This document shows positions 3,913-28,459 of a stretch of 64,000 nucleotides of DNA, piece by piece. Every line of letters begins with the position of its first letter. Position 1 is the first letter of the stretch. The notes beneath the pieces were generated by a model that worked only from the letters and a program-made list of their open reading frames with translations, was not told the DNA's origin and did no database searches. Made by a program: the position numbers and the translations under genes. The stretch comes from Candidatus Poriferisodalis sp. (GTDB taxonomy: Bacteria; Actinomycetota; Acidimicrobiia; Acidimicrobiales; Poriferisodalaceae): NCBI RefSeq assembly GCF_965203655.1, contig NZ_CBDBDD010000007.1, forward strand, positions 7,348 to 71,347, read 5' to 3'.

Positions 3913-5883
3913 TCAGCCGGTGCCGGTGCGCGACTGCTCGGCCAGGCCGGCGATGTCGGCCATGATCGCGGCCAGCTCGAAGTCCTTCGGGGTGTAGACC
4001 GCGGCCACCCCCGCGTCGCGCAGTGCCTGATGGTCCGCGGGCGGGATGATGCCGCCGACGACCACCGGTGCGCTCACGCCCTCGGCGTCGAGGCACGCCA
4101 GCACCTCGGGCACCAGCTCCAGGTGACTGCCCGACAGGATCGACAGGCCGATCACGTCGACGTCCTCGTCGCGTGCGGTAGCGGCGATGTGACGCGGCGT
4201 CAGCCGGATGCCTTCGTACACGACTTCCATGCCGGCATCGCGAGCCGCGACCGCCACCTGCTCGGCACCGTTGGAATGGCCGTCCAGGCCTGGCTTGGCA
4301 ACCAGCACCCGGGGCGGTCCGCCCTCCATCGCCGCGCACCGCTGGGCCACGGTCGCCAGTGCCGTCCCTCTCGACGCCCCGCCGACGCCGCCCAAGCCGG
4401 TCGGTGCACGGAACTCGCCGAACACCTCGCGCAATGCCTGCGCCCACTCGCCGGTCGTCACCCCGGCATGGGCGGCCTCGATGCTCGGCCCCATGATGTT
4501 CACATCGCCTGAAGCGGCCACCCGCAGGTCGTCCAGGGCTGCGACGACCCGGTTCGAGTCGCGGGCGCCCCGCCAGCGTTCGAGGTCGGCAACCAGCTCG
4601 GCTTCGGTCTCGGGATCCACCCGCAGGATCGACTCGTCGCCCTCCAGCGGCGACGGAGCCGTCTCGGTGAACTCGTTCACCCCCACCACGGTCAGCTCGC
4701 TGGCCTCGATCTGGCGCACCCGCTCGGTGTGGCTCGCCACCAGTCGCCGCTTCAGCTCGGTGATCGCGGCGAACGCGCCCCCCATGGCGAGCACGTCGTC
4801 CAGCTCAGCCTGCGCAGCGTCGACCAGCTCGGCGGTGCGACCCTCGACCACGACCGAACCGTCGAAGATGTCGCCGTACTCCAGCAGGTCGGTCTCGTGC
4901 GCCAGCACTTGTTGGATGCGCAGCGACCACTGCTGGTCCCAGGGCCGCGGCAGCCCCAGTGCCTCATTCCAGGCAGGCAACTGCAACGAGCGGGTCCGCG
5001 CCCGCTGCGACAGCGTCACGCCCAAGGCTTCCAGCGTGATCCGGGCCACGTTGTTCTCGGGCTGCGCCTCGGTGAGCCCGAGCGAGTTCACCTGCACGCC
5101 GTAGCGGAACCGCCGCAGCTTGGGGTCGGCCACGCCGTAGCGCTCAGCGCAGATCTGGTCCCACATCTGGGTGAAGGCCCGCACCTTGCAGACCTCTTCG
5201 ATGAAGCGGATGCCGCCGTTCACGAAGAACGAGATGCTGCCCACCGTGGCGTCGAAGCGCTCGGCGGGCACCTTGCCGCTGTCGCGCACCGCGTCGAGCA
5301 CGTCGATCGCGGTGGCCAGCGCGTAGGCGATCTCCTGGGTGGGCGTGGCGCCGGCTTCCTGCAGGTGGTAGCTGCACACGTTGATCGGATTCCACTGCGG
5401 GACATGGGCCGCGCAGTACGCCACGACATCGACGGTGAGCCGACGGCTGGCTTCGGGCGGGAAGATGAACGTGCCCCGGCTCAGGTACTCCTTCACGATG
5501 TCGTTCTGGGTGGTGCCCCGCAGCGCCTCGGCCGCCACCCCGGTGTTCTGCGCGTTGGCGATGTACAGGCTCAGCAGCCACGGCGCGGTGGCATTGATGG
5601 TCATGGAGGTGTTCATGGCATCGGGCGGGATGCCCTCCATGAGCTGGGCCATGTGGCCCAGGTGCACTACGGGCACGCCGACCTTGCCGACTTCGCCGCG
5701 CGCCATCGGATGACCGGGGTCGTAACCGGTCTGTGTCGGCAGGTCGAAGGCCACCGACAGCCCTGTCTGGCCTTTGGCCAGCATCGACCGGTACAGCTCG
5801 TTGGATGCCCGGGCCGTGGAGTGCCCCGAGTACGTGCGCATCAGCCATGGCCGCGTGCGCTGTGGCGCATCGGATGCTGTCAT
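3913..5883 (-). CDS. Fused B12-dependent acyl-CoA mutase (catalytic domain plus C-terminal cobalamin-binding domain; MeaA/ethylmalonyl-CoA-mutase-like or MCM-like)
   Basis: PWLMRTYSGHSTARASNELY and GLSVAFDLPTQTGYD in the N-terminal part. C-terminal LVAKPGLDGHSNGAEQV is a DxHxxG-type B12 motif. ATG at 5883 was chosen because the longer ORF overlaps aat. Confidence 0.85.
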   Translation of the reverse strand: MTASDAPQRTRPWLMRTYSGHSTARASNELYRSMLAKGQTGLSVAFDLPTQTGYDPGHPMARGEVGKVGVPVVHLGHMAQLMEGIPPDAMNTSMTINATAPWLLSLYIANAQNTGVAAEALRGTTQNDIVKEYLSRGTFIFPPEASRRLTVDVVAYCAAHVPQWNPINVCSYHLQEAGATPTQEIAYALATAIDVLDAVRDSGKVPAERFDATVGSISFFVNGGIRFIEEVCKVRAFTQMWDQICAERYGVADPKLRRFRYGVQVNSLGLTEAQPENNVARITLEALGVTLSQRARTRSLQLPAWNEALGLPRPWDQQWSLRIQQVLAHETDLLEYGDIFDGSVVVEGRTAELVDAAQAELDDVLAMGGAFAAITELKRRLVASHTERVRQIEASELTVVGVNEFTETAPSPLEGDESILRVDPETEAELVADLERWRGARDSNRVVAALDDLRVAASGDVNIMGPSIEAAHAGVTTGEWAQALREVFGEFRAPTGLGGVGGASRGTALATVAQRCAAMEGGPPRVLVAKPGLDGHSNGAEQVAVAARDAGMEVVYEGIRLTPRHIAATARDEDVDVIGLSILSGSHLELVPEVLACLDAEGVSAPVVVGGIIPPADHQALRDAGVAAVYTPKDFELAAIMADIAGLAEQSRTGTG

Positions 5884-13830: not shown

Positions 13831-15666
13831 TTATTCAGATGCCTGGGGCATTCGCGGCCCGGCGATGCGCAGGTCCCCCCGCCGGCGCGTCACGCCCGTC
13901 CGGTCCAGGTAGCCCACCAGCGGCAGCGCGTACTTGCGGGTCGTGCCGAGTGCTTCGCGGATCTCTGCCACGGTGACGCCGTCAGGCTGACCGGCCAGCA
14001 GTGCCGCAATCTGCTCCGCTGCGCCCTCGACTGCCGCAGCGGCGAACCAGATGCCGTCTGCGTGAATCAAGTCTCCCCGGCGGGCCAGCGCCAGCAGTTC
14101 TTGCTGGGTGACACCGCTCGGCTCAGGCGGCGAGAACGGAGACGCTGCGAGCGCTGCGATGACGGGATGGTCGGCCAGGACATCAGCAGCATCGGCCTGC
14201 CGGGCACGACCGGCATCGACCGCGATCCCGTCCAGCGTCTCGATCGCCAGTCGCTGGCGTTCGTCCAGCCCGGCCATGTCCAACCCCAGCGGTCCGGCGC
14301 CTGCGACCTGTTCTCGCAGCTCGTCGAGCAAGGCGTCCACGAGTTCGGGCGGTGCAACCCAGTCGCCCAAGACGGGCTCGAAGCGCTGCCCGGTGAGGCG
14401 CTCGAGCTGTGTCGTCTTCGCCCAGCCGCGCTCGGCGAGCATGCGTTCGGGACGGGCGTCTGGCTTGGCGACCGAGGCTCGCAGCTGCGGATCGGGGTCG
14501 AGCACGGTGCCGCCGCCGATGGTTTGGCCCCGGCCGAAGTCCCGCAGCACGAAGCGGTCTCCCAGCACGAGCGGCAGCGCGACCGGCAGGTGCAGCCGGG
14601 CGTATCCGGTCTCGCCGGGGGCGATGCGCTCAGGACCGAGCACGCGCAGACGCACCGGCCATTCGCCCGACCCGAGGTACAGGGCGTAGGCGCCCCGCCG
14701 GGTCACATCGCTGCCGAGGCTGTCGAGCACGGTCAGCTCCACATCCACGCTGCGGGTGTGATGCCACTGGTCGGATCGCACGAGCGCGATGCCGCGTCCC
14801 AGGTCGTCGGCGTCGACGCCGGTGAGATTGAGCGCGACACGATGTCCCGGACCGATGCGCTCAACGGCCGTGCTCTGGGTCTGGATCGCCCGCACCCGCG
14901 CCGCCCGGCCGCCGGGCGCCGTGCGCAGCGCGTCGCCGGCCGAGATGCTGCCGCCCGCGAGCGTGCCGGTCACGATCCGCCCCGCCCCGGTCGCGGCGAA
15001 TGACCGGTCGATCCACAGGCGGGGCCGGTCGCGGTCGGCTGCGGTGGGCGTGGCAGCGCACAGGTCGTCGAGCGCGCCGCGCAGCTCGTCCAGCCCGGTG
15101 CCGTCGATGGCATCTGTTGCGACCACCGGTGCGTCAGCCAGGAACGTGCCCTCGACGTGGTCGGCGATGTCGAGACGGGCCAGTTCGGCGAGTTCGTCGT
15201 CGACCAAGCCGATCTGGCTGAGCACCACGACGCCGTGGGAGATGCCGAGCAGTTCCAGGATCGCCAGGTGCTCGGCCGACTGCGGTTTCCAGCCTTCCGG
15301 CGCTGCCACCACGAACAGGGAGGCGTCCACCGCTCCCACGCCGGCCAGCATGTTCTTCACGAAGCGGATGTGCCCGGGCACGTCCACGAAGCTGACCTGC
15401 CGGCCCGACGGCAGCGTGCAGAACGCGAAGCCGAGGTCGATGGTGAGCCCGCGCTCCTTCTCCTCGGCCAGCCGGTCAGGGTCGGTGCCGGTGAGGGCGC
15501 GCACCAGCGTCGACTTGCCGTGGTCCACGTGACCTGCGGTGCCGACGATGTGCACGCCGCCAGCTTGCCCCGCCCGGACGACGAGCGTGCGCGGACCGGC
15601 GCCTGTTCGTCGCGCCGCCATTACTTCCCGCTCTTGTTCGCTGCGCTCACGGGCCGCTCGGGCCAC
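13831..15666 (-). CDS. selB: Selenocysteine-specific elongation factor
   Basis: IVGTAGHVDHGKSTL and DVPGH GTPase motifs, with long C-terminal winged-helix region. Start is uncertain (GTG 15666, ATG 15621 or GTG 15555). Confidence 0.85.
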   Translation of the reverse strand: MARAARERSEQEREVMAARRTGAGPRTLVVRAGQAGGVHIVGTAGHVDHGKSTLVRALTGTDPDRLAEEKERGLTIDLGFAFCTLPSGRQVSFVDVPGHIRFVKNMLAGVGAVDASLFVVAAPEGWKPQSAEHLAILELLGISHGVVVLSQIGLVDDELAELARLDIADHVEGTFLADAPVVATDAIDGTGLDELRGALDDLCAATPTAADRDRPRLWIDRSFAATGAGRIVTGTLAGGSISAGDALRTAPGGRAARVRAIQTQSTAVERIGPGHRVALNLTGVDADDLGRGIALVRSDQWHHTRSVDVELTVLDSLGSDVTRRGAYALYLGSGEWPVRLRVLGPERIAPGETGYARLHLPVALPLVLGDRFVLRDFGRGQTIGGGTVLDPDPQLRASVAKPDARPERMLAERGWAKTTQLERLTGQRFEPVLGDWVAPPELVDALLDELREQVAGAGPLGLDMAGLDERQRLAIETLDGIAVDAGRARQADAADVLADHPVIAALAASPFSPPEPSGVTQQELLALARRGDLIHADGIWFAAAAVEGAAEQIAALLAGQPDGVTVAEIREALGTTRKYALPLVGYLDRTGVTRRRGDLRIAGPRMPQASE

Positions 15667-15767
15667 GGCTTCGCCATCCGGCTCAGCCTCTGGGTGTCGA
15701 ACCGCCCGACCGTCACCTCGGCAGCAAAATCGACTTGTGTATCCTGCCGGTGCGGCCGTAAGGTCGC

Positions 15768-15839
15768 TGGTGGAGCTAGACGGAATCGAACCGTCCGAGG
15801 CCAGGTTTCAGGTCGGCTCGCCGCACCAGCGGTAGCCCC
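15768..15839 (-). ncRNA. 72-nt tRNA-like element with encoded CCA and non-canonical D and anticodon arms
   Basis: Acceptor GGGGCUA/UAGCUCC (7 bp including one G-U), perfect T arm GACGG-UUCGAUU-CCGUC, discriminator A plus CCA. D arm is only 4 bp with a 5-nt loop. The anticodon arm has an 8-nt loop CCUGAAAC with an A-C closing mismatch. Confidence 0.4.
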
Positions 15840-15840
15840 A

Positions 15841-15872
15841 CGAGAGCCGCACTCTTCGGGGTGCGGCTCTCG
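15841..15872. other. 14-bp perfect/GU hairpin abutting the tRNA-like element
   Basis: CGAGAGCCGCAC(TC-TTCG-GG)GTGCGGCTCTCG. The loop reads C(UUCG)G on the + strand and C(CGAA)G on the sel-gene strand. Confidence 0.5.
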
Positions 15873-15967
15873 TCATGCTGGCAGACAGAACGCCAGCAAC
15901 TTCTGTGAATGTCTGATCTCACGCAGGCGCGCGTCGATGCAGCCTGCGGGTCAGAAGCCGTAGGGCT

Positions 15968-17251
15968 CTACTGCTGGCTGAGCGCGTGGCGGACGGCAGC
16001 CGCCACGACGGTGTCGTCGGCGGGGTCAACCGTGCGCAGGTCGAGCACGGTGGTCTGCTCGTTGACACGAGCGATCACCGGCGGATCGAACGCTCGCAGC
16101 GCAGCCGCGTAGTCGCCGTCGAGCTCGATGCCGGCTGACGGGATCTCCTGGCCGGGCAGCGACCCGGCACCGGCCAGTGCCGTCGTTTGCGACGGTCGGC
16201 CCACGCCGAGCGCCTCGGCTCGCTGGGCCAGCTCCTCGACCGGCACCCGGGCCATGCGCCAGAACGGGATCGCGTCAGCATCGCGGCGCAGGTAGGCCAG
16301 TGCCACCGATTGCAGCGCGTCCAGCACCAGCGATCCGGGCCGGAAGGCCCGCATCAGCGGGTGCGCCGCGCAGGCTGCGATCAGGTCGGCCCGGCCGCAG
16401 ATGATCCCGGCCTGAGGCCCGCCCATGAGCTTGTCGCCCGAGAACGTCACCAGCGCCGCGCCCGCTGCCAGTGTCTGGCGGGCACCCGGCTCACCGGCCA
16501 GCCAGTCGGGGCGCTGCCCCAGCCAATCGCAGCGTTCATCCAGCAGGCCCGAGCCCAGGTCGGACACCACCGGCGGCCCGATCTCCGCGAGGTCCGCCAC
16601 GTCGGCTTCCTCGGTGAAGCCGGTGATGCGGTAGTTGGACGGGTGCACCTTCAGCAGCAGTGCCACGTCGTCCCGCTCGGCGGCGGCTTGGTAGTCGGCG
16701 GCACGGGTGCGGTTGGTGGTGCCCACCTCCACGAGCCGTGCGCCTGACTGCTCCATCACCTCGGGCACCCGGAAGCCGCCGCCGATCTCCACGAGCTCGC
16801 CGCGCGACACGGTCACGCCGCGGTCACGGGCCAGGGCCGCCAGCACGAGCGTCACTGCGGCAGCGCAGTTGTTGACCACGAGCGCCGCCTCGGCCCCCGT
16901 CAGCGTTGCCAGCAGCAGTGACGCGTGCGTCGTACGCGAGCCGCGCCGACCCGATGCCAAGTCGAACTCCAGGTTGCTGAACCGCACCGGGCTGCTATCA
17001 GCCTCCGAACTGGACAGCGATCGACTGTGTTGATTCCCGAGCGGAGCGCGGCCGAGATTCGTGTGCAGCAAGACGCCGGTCGCGTTGACCGCAGGCCCCA
17101 GCAGGCTGCGGCGAAGCCGGTGCGCTTCGTCGACCGCCGAGTCGGGGTCGCCGGCGGCGATGGCCGTCCGGGCCGCGATGACCAGCAGCGGGTGCGGCAG
17201 GCCCACGTCCGCAATCCGCAACGCCAGATCGTTCACCGACGGCGGCCTCAT
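15968..17251 (-). CDS. selA: L-seryl-tRNA(Sec) selenium transferase
   Basis: FSGDKLMGGPQAGII (PLP-lysine motif) and NNCAAAV. Confidence 0.9.
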   Translation of the reverse strand: MRPPSVNDLALRIADVGLPHPLLVIAARTAIAAGDPDSAVDEAHRLRRSLLGPAVNATGVLLHTNLGRAPLGNQHSRSLSSSEADSSPVRFSNLEFDLASGRRGSRTTHASLLLATLTGAEAALVVNNCAAAVTLVLAALARDRGVTVSRGELVEIGGGFRVPEVMEQSGARLVEVGTTNRTRAADYQAAAERDDVALLLKVHPSNYRITGFTEEADVADLAEIGPPVVSDLGSGLLDERCDWLGQRPDWLAGEPGARQTLAAGAALVTFSGDKLMGGPQAGIICGRADLIAACAAHPLMRAFRPGSLVLDALQSVALAYLRRDADAIPFWRMARVPVEELAQRAEALGVGRPSQTTALAGAGSLPGQEIPSAGIELDGDYAAALRAFDPPVIARVNEQTTVLDLRTVDPADDTVVAAAVRHALSQQ

Positions 17252-28363: not shown

Positions 28364-28459
28364 TGGCGGAGGTGGACGGGAATCGAACCCGCCGGACGGG
28401 GATCACCCGTCCCGCCCGCTTTGAAGGCGGGGGAGCCCACCAGGCGCTCAGACACCTCC
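28364..28459 (-). tRNA. selC: tRNA-Sec (anticodon UCA)
   Basis: 96 nt. Anticodon arm CCCGC-CUUCAAA-GCGGG. Long variable arm GGACGGG-UGAUC-CCCGUCC. T loop UUCGAUU. 6-bp-type D stem with a 4-nt loop. Discriminator G plus encoded CCA. Confidence 0.8.

Follow-up and report, generated by a model that had tools for sequence, protein, structure and literature searches.

A conserved tRNA-like RNA of probable alanine type between selA and selB of Candidatus Poriferisodalis

What is a tRNA-shaped RNA with an encoded CCA end doing between selA and selB, when the selenocysteine tRNA of the same genome is encoded elsewhere? The question is raised by 64 kb of high-GC DNA (contig NZ_CBDBDD010000007.1; this whole stretch is called the window) from Candidatus Poriferisodalis, a genus of Acidimicrobiia that is uncultured and associated with sponges. 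An original prediction, made from the sequence of the window, had described a 72-nt element between the two genes and on their strand, with an acceptor stem, a T arm, a discriminator A and an encoded CCA, and all of these are present in the sequence at positions 15768-15839 of the minus strand. The statement that the element is not selC also holds, as ARAGORN locates the genuine tRNA-Sec (selC) at 28364-28459 on the minus strand. Most likely, as judged from sequence comparison, the element is an unannotated, conserved pseudo-tRNA gene of alanine type that has its place among the tRNA-like RNAs and those resembling the tRNA-like domain (TLD) of transfer-messenger RNA (tmRNA). The more specific reading that we favour, to which we give about an even chance (0.5), is that a stand-alone small-RNA gene gives rise to a processed pseudo-tRNA of alanine identity which would act in trans.

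Fold and conservation of the tRNA-like RNA

Read from 15839 down to 15768, the tRNA-like RNA has the sequence GGGGCUACCGCUGGUGCGGCGAGCCGACCUGAAACCUGGCCUCGGACGGUUCGAUUCCGUCUAGCUCCACCA and is made up of the following parts.

15768-15839, minus strand (the strand of selA and selB): tRNA-like RNA, 72 nt, delimited by sequence and covariation
15833-15839 with 15772-15778, minus strand: acceptor stem GGGGCUA/UAGCUCC, 7 bp, containing G3:U70
15821-15832, minus strand: D-like hairpin CCGC-UGGU-GCGG, delimited by covariation
15796-15820, minus strand: anticodon-like arm
15779-15795, minus strand: T arm GACGG-UUCGAUU-CCGUC with the loop UUCGAUU
15771, minus strand: discriminator A73
15768-15770, minus strand: encoded CCA

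The fold was assessed in a final alignment of 23 copies, 22 of them distinct, which come from the selA-selB junction and from a second locus described below, and a model with six helices was used that includes two hairpins flanking the RNA. In this model, 39 pairs are defined, 95% of all cells are paired and nine pairs carry compensatory changes, a number reached by none of 500 shuffles and compared with 0-1 in slid controls. Since nine pairs carry compensatory changes, the element is not a decaying pseudogene and its tRNA-like fold is under selection; the alignment of spacers that the original prediction had proposed thus bears out its conserved, structured tRNA mimic. In the acceptor stem, pair 4:69 occurs in three forms (G-C, C-G and A-U) and pairs 5:68 and 6:67 change as well. 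The D-like stem is paired in 100% of cells and its outer pair changes from C-G to G-C (9 versus 13 distinct sequences), while the T stem is paired in 99% and has one compensatory pair (50:64). The remaining compensatory pairs are found in the 5' hairpin (two), in the 3' hairpin (one) and in the anticodon-like arm (one). Folding energy gives a weak signal, with z = -1.8 and 9 of 200 shuffles folding equally well.

Acceptor pair 3:70 is a G:U pair and is kept as such in 22 of 22 distinct copies while neighbouring acceptor pairs turn over, and A73 and CCA are invariant in all aligned copies. G3:U70 and A73 form, to go by sequence, an alanine identity set, as is common to tRNA-Ala and tmRNA (PMC3968760), and the set found here also includes G1-C72 and mostly G2-C71.

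The central part of the RNA departs from a tRNA. The D-like stem of 4 bp adjoins the acceptor stem with a connector of 0 nt, so positions 8-9 are missing. The original prediction had placed the D arm one nucleotide away from the acceptor stem and had given it a 5-nt loop; covariation instead gives CCGC-UGGU-GCGG directly abutting the acceptor, and the former register is wrong because in it the invariant C of alignment column 44 would have column 52 as its partner, where the observed G-to-C change breaks the pair. The D-like loop contains GG and, on structural grounds, could dock on the T loop. Only about 25 nt, folded as a closed hairpin, separate the D-like segment from the T arm. The invariant lower helix of this hairpin, CGAG/CUCG, can be reached via a one-nucleotide bulge, whereas the upper part is sloppy, with frequent mismatches and 88% of cells paired. 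The loop has 8-9 nt and holds the format Y-U-NNN-A-Y, and the central triplet varies across copies, close relatives included, being GAA, GAU or CAG. For the anticodon arm as first drawn, the GAA triplet and the enlarged loop were seen again, but the arm can extend further than had been proposed, through the bulge and the CGAG/CUCG helix.

The surrounding module and its two loci

The tRNA-like RNA is the centre of a conserved module of about 190 nt (15727-15918), composed of an upstream block, a 5' hairpin, a 2-nt linker, the RNA itself, a 3' hairpin and a tail.

15872..15918, minus strand: upstream block GAUCAGAMAUUCA...CUGCCAGCAUGAC, 47 nt, kept at both genomic loci
15842..15871, minus strand: 5' hairpin GAGAGCCGCAC-CCCGAAGA-GUGCGGCUCUC, ending 2 nt before G1
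15752..15767, minus strand: 3' hairpin GCGACC-UUAC-GGCCGC, starting directly after CCA
15727..15751, minus strand: apparently single-stranded tail (...AUACACAAGUCGAUUU), end of the module

The upstream block is AT-rich relative to this genome and ends with TGC-CAGCAT (15883-15875), 4 nt before the 5' hairpin, which resembles an extended -10 element. According to a manual count in the alignment, 'TGn' followed by NANNNT is kept in 21 of 23 copies, with the A (position 2) and the T (position 6) of the latter in all 23. As a start 6-8 nt downstream of such a motif would land on the first bases of the hairpin, the block may be a promoter whose transcript starts at the hairpin. A simple scan for sigma-70 promoters and terminators found nothing. 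The hairpin that had been predicted immediately 5' of the element is real, with 10 modelled pairs, 99% of cells paired and two compensatory pairs (A-U to G-C and G-C to A-U). Its helix of 14 bp, however, is approached only on the opposite strand (13-14 bp with a UUCG loop), and the sel strand has 11 bp, then a C.A mismatch and then one pair closing CGAA. The 3' hairpin is kept in all copies, with one compensatory change (C-G to U-A, in L095) and an internal A.C mismatch in many of them. In the tail, the motifs ACACAAG and GAUU are near-invariant at both loci; copy L109 has UAUACAAG in place of UACACAAG. A long-range partner for the upstream block or the tail was found neither by eye nor with RNAalifold. 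An open reading frame (ORF) running through the hairpin, from ATG at 15876 to a TGA in the loop, was considered and dismissed, the ATG being ATA in several relatives and the hairpin loop containing a 1-nt indel, and inspection of the alignment showed no conserved reading frame downstream of the element.

In order to follow the module across the class, 80 selA loci were compared, with one genome per species (22 from Poriferisodalis and 58 from other Acidimicrobiia). A homologous module spacer occupies the selA-selB junction in 15 of the 80, all from Poriferisodalis, which makes 16 genomes when the window is counted. The check on relatives that had been proposed with the original prediction thus came out divided, the spacer being kept in 15 of 22 Poriferisodalis junctions and missing from 7 of 22 and from 58 of 58 other Acidimicrobiia. 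In all 58 non-Poriferisodalis loci selA and selB abut. The module-less junctions within the genus have a gap of about 30-50 nt (L002, L005, L006 and L013) or an unrelated 100-nt spacer (L021), and in L009 (5318-7984) and L015 (5375-8008) a repeat-rich ORF of about 880 residues lies between selA and selB. Insertions thus seem to be frequent at this junction.

In metagenomes, a pattern scan detected a complete module between a short-chain dehydrogenase (SDR) gene and the gene for an ABC-transporter solute-binding protein (SBP) in L092. SDR homologues led to the same SDR-SBP locus in Poriferisodalis genomes, and a covariance model derived from the copies at the sel locus was then run on these loci. 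The module at SDR-SBP carries the same upstream block, both hairpins and the same tail as the one at the sel locus. With strict search patterns, the module was found only in the genus Candidatus Poriferisodalis. The occupancy of the two loci in individual genomes is as follows.

L008 (3,897,541 bp): selA-selB, module present; SDR-SBP, empty
L018 (2,651,081 bp): selA-selB, module present; SDR-SBP, empty
L009 (3,662,822 bp): selA-selB, no module; SDR-SBP, module present
L015 (4,441,744 bp): selA-selB, no module; SDR-SBP, module present
L014 (4,389,052 bp): selA-selB, module present; SDR-SBP, module present, its T arm carrying an 8-nt duplication
L013: selA-selB, empty; SDR-SBP, inferred present, as an identical SDR protein adjoins the module in all six places shown

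At least one copy is present in every genome examined at the two loci, five directly and one by inference, and none was seen with neither. The SDR-locus copy in the genome of L014 (L115 4074-4225, also L101 4074-4225) carries, within its T arm, a tandem duplication of 8 nt, GACGGTTC, and the sel-locus copy of that genome is intact; the lesion looks like the decay of a redundant paralog.

Because the same module occurs at an unrelated locus and is absent from many sel junctions, its position between selA and selB is incidental, and the sel genes and the module are independent of each other. In a neighbour-joining tree, sel-locus and SDR-locus copies form two separate clades that are about 17-20% apart; since copies cluster by locus, these sequences point to two old paralogous loci with differential loss and not to a hopping repeat. 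Further copies were found neither in the 64-kb window nor in the other fetched loci (about 120). At both loci, empty alleles are different along their entire spacer and so are not clean excisions. At SDR-SBP, the SBP gene has its own promoter-like sequence, TTTACA-N18-TATAGT, between the module and the gene, which is present in alleles without the module too, and the module is therefore dispensable in cis at this locus. One SDR-SBP spacer without the module (L093, about 4960-5030) has the final 17 nt of the SDR gene (ACTGCGCTTCGATTGAT) tandemly repeated three times.

Relation to known RNAs

The ARAGORN and Rfam runs proposed with the original prediction gave no default call and, as best match, a tmRNA below threshold. 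When 1 kb around the element was searched with permissive E-values, no Rfam family reached its gathering score; the tmRNA model (RF00023, ssrA) matched with its two tRNA-like ends only (24.2 bits; gathering score, 47), the models for tRNA and tRNA-Sec scored below this match, and mascRNA-menRNA gave a weak match of 17 bits (threshold 42.5). ARAGORN called neither a tRNA nor a tmRNA for the element in default mode, and under relaxed settings its results were inconsistent across copies, ranging from a 4-base anticodon 'tgaa' to Val(tac) or nothing, with a cloverleaf drawn for some.

A tmRNA has an acceptor with G3:U70, a discriminator A and a 3' CCA, and a stem-less, reduced D loop that is held extended by SmpB (PMC3968760). 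[quoted passage not shown]

The closest functional parallel may be the tmRNAs that consist of a TLD only and lack a coding sequence (CDS). One is encoded by mycobacteriophage DS6A, and, as far as the cited accounts go, a similar molecule acts as a strong inhibitor of tmRNA, which may come about through titration of SmpB (PMC4131195, citing Mao et al. 2009; PMC11915505). Certain organelles have CDS-less tmRNAs too, namely jakobid and oomycete mitochondria and plastids of Mallomonadaceae (PMC11915505). The DS6A RNA was located at JN698994 28478-28560 (L118), is 83 nt long and reaches 43.2 bits with the Rfam model of tmRNA (threshold 47); it is unannotated in the GenBank record and sits between gp33 and gp34. 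Like the DS6A type, the element has a 7-bp acceptor with G3:U70, a discriminator A and a canonical T arm (UUCGAUU loop). It also resembles TLD-only tmRNAs in the UGG-containing segment after the acceptor strand, in a helix that replaces the long tmRNA body, in having no tag frame and in a size of about 65-85 nt, and the host of DS6A is an actinobacterium, as is the source of the element. The differences are that the 3' end of the DS6A RNA is CUA and that of the element CCA, that the DS6A RNA aligns to the tmRNA model through D loop and P2a whereas the element does so at the acceptor and T arm only, and that the element is chromosomal, with two paralogous loci and conserved flanking hairpins and tail. 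The covariance model of the element family scores the DS6A RNA at 11.7 bits. By analogy, the element may resemble a TLD-only tmRNA in the way it works, but it cannot be filed as one. To our knowledge, a single mycobacteriophage, some mitochondria and two plastids are the only sources of CDS-less, TLD-only relatives of tmRNA, and few bacterial pseudo-tRNAs have proven roles.

In comparison with tRNA-Ala, the element has a canonical T arm and the acceptor identity, but no alanine anticodon, a loop of 8-9 nt with a drifting triplet, a 4-nt D loop, no positions 8-9 and a length of 72 nt. The acceptor GGGGCUA/UAGCUCC-A-CCA of the clade to which the window belongs is presumably the sequence of E. 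coli tRNA-Ala. BLAST with the 3' half of the element gave weak matches to phage tRNA-Ala genes, at their 3' ends only, and neither a tmRNA nor a tRNA-Ala gene of the host was present in any fetched locus. Compared with a canonical tRNA (RF00005), which has a connector of 2 nt (positions 8-9), a D loop of 7-11 nt, an anticodon stem of 5 bp, an anticodon loop of 7 nt and a fixed anticodon, the connector of 0 nt, the 4-nt D loop, the 8-9-nt anticodon-like loop and the unfixed triplet set the element apart. The tRNA-Phe-like pseudogene of the original prediction finds no support, given the alanine identity of the acceptor, the compensatory changes and the drift of the triplet.

Two further systems invite comparison. 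Like tRNA-Other of Bacillus cereus (PMC3399842), the element is a chromosomal, tRNA-shaped, non-decoding gene of narrow lineage range with a proposed role in trans; its identity set is another one, there is no sequence relationship, and tRNA-Other flanks a genomic island (PMC3399842), whereas neither a genomic island nor an integrase is evident at the element. With mascRNA/MALAT1 and with bacterial RNase P sites in operons it shares a tRNA-like fold beside longer transcripts and stabilising structures at the predicted cleavage sites. The mascRNA system is eukaryotic, and the element differs from it by the encoded CCA, the kept alanine identity and the apparent promoter of its own.

A tRNA-Sec has a 13-bp acceptor plus T domain, a long variable arm, a UCA anticodon and a discriminator G (PMC7609411; also the selC of the window), while the element has 7+5 bp, no variable arm, no UCA anticodon and a discriminator A. 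The tRNA-Sec of the window has the D loop UGGU, as does the element, and its acceptor and T stems apparently comprise 7+6 bp, not 8+5 bp. A recent duplication of selC was considered and discarded, since only the UGGU loop and a generic T loop are common to both and selC receives 11.9 bits from the family model. An origin from phage was likewise discarded, as a pattern scan of IMG/VR gave only ordinary phage tRNAs with UGGU D loops and the BLAST hits were the tRNA-Ala 3' ends already mentioned. The 4-nt UGGU D loops occur in phage tRNA arrays (L081-L091; e.g. L085 1375-1470 and L091 10007-10099), in which ARAGORN additionally finds a tRNA whose anticodon has four bases (cggg) and another whose anticodon (tta) reads a stop codon.

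Mode of action, alternatives and gene context

In the reading that we favour, the module would be transcribed from its own promoter-like block, and the primary transcript would begin at or near the stable 5' hairpin. From the tRNA-type features one would expect RNase P to cut after the 2-nt linker, generating G1, and the 3' side to be trimmed back to the encoded CCA, just before the 3' hairpin. The resulting 72-nt product would combine a canonical acceptor/T-arm half with a GG-containing D-like loop able to dock on the T loop, and AlaRS would be expected to charge it with alanine because G3:U70, A73, G1-C72 and mostly G2-C71 are present. It would be non-decoding, because the anticodon-like loop has 8-9 nt and its central triplet is free to change, and it might act in trans on the tRNA-Ala/tmRNA machinery (AlaRS, EF-Tu, possibly SmpB and the ribosome), as TLD-only tmRNAs do. 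The link to RNase P, AlaRS and EF-Tu is suggested by the alanine identity set, the canonical T loop and the GG-containing D-like loop. That the element is a stand-alone gene is supported by the recurrence of the whole unit, with block, hairpins and tail, at a second, unrelated locus. In any specific downstream role, be it modulation of rescue or donation of alanine, our confidence is much lower. One such proposal, which we regard as possible but tentative, is a dedicated, alanine-charged, non-decoding, free-standing mimic of the tRNA-like domain of tmRNA, of which the genus would keep at least one of two paralogs, and which would modulate ribosome rescue (for example through competition for SmpB, EF-Tu or AlaRS, or through rescue without a tag) or donate alanine to a non-ribosomal acceptor. 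If this were true, free-living or symbiotic bacteria would have a class of tRNA-like regulator, acting in trans, that has not been described before.

Several points weigh against the favoured reading. Promoter, RNase P cleavage and alanylation are all deduced from sequence features. The module is co-oriented with the flanking genes at both loci, which also fits a processing element acting in cis. The table of the two loci comprises five genomes plus one inferred, which are phylogenetically related, and a one-sided Fisher test (by hand) gives about 0.2, so that 'at least one copy per genome' is suggestive. The youth of the genus may account in part for the persistence of G3:U70. Pair 2:71 is broken in L019 and L020, and in L109 (4033-4176), the sole copy seen in its genome (3,662,822 bp), a change of G53 to A breaks the last pair of the T stem. 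Furthermore, binding of SmpB is uncertain, because the paired D-like stem and the closed anticodon-like arm would, on structural comparison, fill the space that SmpB takes on tmRNA (PMC3968760).

An alternative that we consider improbable, yet to be taken seriously, is that the module punctuates or insulates transcripts in cis. RNase P and 3' processing would then cut a polycistronic transcript, with the 5' hairpin left as a protective 3' end of the upstream mRNA, the 3' hairpin as a protective 5' end of the downstream mRNA and the tRNA-like RNA as a by-product, as mascRNA is for MALAT1. The hairpins at both ends of the RNA (2 nt before G1 and 0 nt after CCA), the orientation shared with the flanking genes at both loci and the weak mascRNA-menRNA match of 17 bits are in agreement with this. 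So is the location inside a gene pair that is tightly coupled in relatives, for which reason selB must be expressed through the module or from it; cleavage on a selA-module-selB transcript, if it occurs, would physically separate both cistrons. However, relatives lack the module at either junction, a promoter-like sequence belonging to the SBP gene follows the module, separate transcription is suggested by the conserved upstream block, the retention of one or the other paralog points to a role in trans, and G3:U70, A73 and an encoded CCA are not required by RNase P. Still less probable is a functionless relic, that is, a decayed fragment of tRNA-Ala or tmRNA, a remnant of an integration site or a small selfish mobile insert. 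At each of the two loci, close relatives differ in having or lacking the module, lesions are found in some copies (L115, L109), imperfect direct repeats surround the sel-locus insert, and tmRNA and tRNA genes are common integration sites (PMC11915505). Against a relic stand the compensatory changes, which affect five of six helices, the limit of at most one copy per locus with no extras in 64 kb and about 120 loci, the clustering of copies by locus with no mixing, and empty alleles that are not clean excisions; moreover, no integrase or transposase gene was seen among the immediate neighbours of the module at selA-selB. A MITE-like mobile element, bounded by terminal repeats and target duplications, was rejected in particular, given that the direct repeats are fuzzy, the empty alleles are replacements of whole spacers and multiple copies are missing.

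The original prediction had offered two more explanations, both of which fare worse. An unusual but functional decoding tRNA with an expanded anticodon loop, taken here as charged with alanine and reading Phe, Ile or Leu codons or quadruplets, so that deliberate mistranslation or recoding would result, is highly unlikely. The Y-U-NNN-A-Y format of the loop, the alanine identity and the relaxed ARAGORN cloverleaf of some copies would suit it, and natural G3:U70 tRNAs with non-alanine anticodons as well as non-canonical tRNAs exist (PMC7609411). Yet a triplet that alternates between GAA, GAU and CAG among close relatives would change the amino acid replaced, and the loop of 8-9 nt, the mismatched upper stem, the missing positions 8-9, the absence of a default ARAGORN call and the score of the Rfam tRNA model below the tmRNA match argue in the same direction. 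As for the idea of a processing site or autoregulatory decoy, RNase P and 3' processing are plausible, but a function tied to SelA or SelB is largely refuted by the distribution and the second locus. That the mimic or its adjacent hairpin binds SelA or SelB and tunes the sel operon is extremely doubtful, despite its place between selA and selB in 16 genomes, window included, and a D-like loop UGGU identical to that of the tRNA-Sec of the genome. Sister genomes have the module at the unrelated locus and none at selA-selB; 7 of 22 Poriferisodalis junctions and all 58 others lack it, and it does not qualify as a selenocysteine insertion sequence (SECIS)-like operator; its 7+5 bp, alanine identity and discriminator A differ from the 13-bp tRNA-Sec form recognised by SelB and SelA (PMC7609411); and UGGU D loops also occur in ordinary phage tRNAs. 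An invariant 'UGA' in the anticodon-like loop had been considered as a mimic of a Sec codon or specifier that pairs with the tRNA-Sec anticodon, and was rejected since SDR-locus copies have CUCAGAC.

As a chromosomal pseudo-tRNA of alanine identity, the element would offer a tractable new example of tRNA mimicry outside translation, with flanking hairpins of its own, clear covariation and two paralogous loci with reciprocal retention, although its reach is limited for now, as only one uncultured genus of sponge symbionts is known to have it. That it lies between selA and selB appears to be an accident of insertion and cautions against inferring function from neighbouring genes.

The sel genes themselves lie outside the module and provide its context in the window.

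15968-17251, minus strand: selA, TIGR00474 equivalog, 396 bits
13831-15666, minus strand: selB (ORF), TIGR00475, 301 bits

The SelA proteins of the nearest relatives of the window are 84-97% identical to its own. The spacer, put at about 300 nt in the original prediction, actually measures 346-412 nt, depending on the choice of the selB start. Comparison of junctions indicates that the start kept across relatives is the GTG at 15555, with a CDS of 13831..15555. The ORF runs in frame further upstream to 15666, with an ATG at 15621 preceded by GGGAAG, and an extra block of about 70 nt lies 5' of the conserved GTG in the window (15556-15666, minus strand), L001 and L004. This block and the in-frame ATG may therefore represent a lineage-specific N-terminal extension of selB. 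The imperfect direct repeats around the sel-locus insert are TTCTGACCC..CAGGC and TTCGACACC..AGAGGC, at 15940-15960 and 15690-15710 of the window; they may reflect a target duplication, a recombination site or chance. Matching flanks occur in L003, L004, L007 and L011, and a similar TCTGACA motif is found near the SDR-locus copies.

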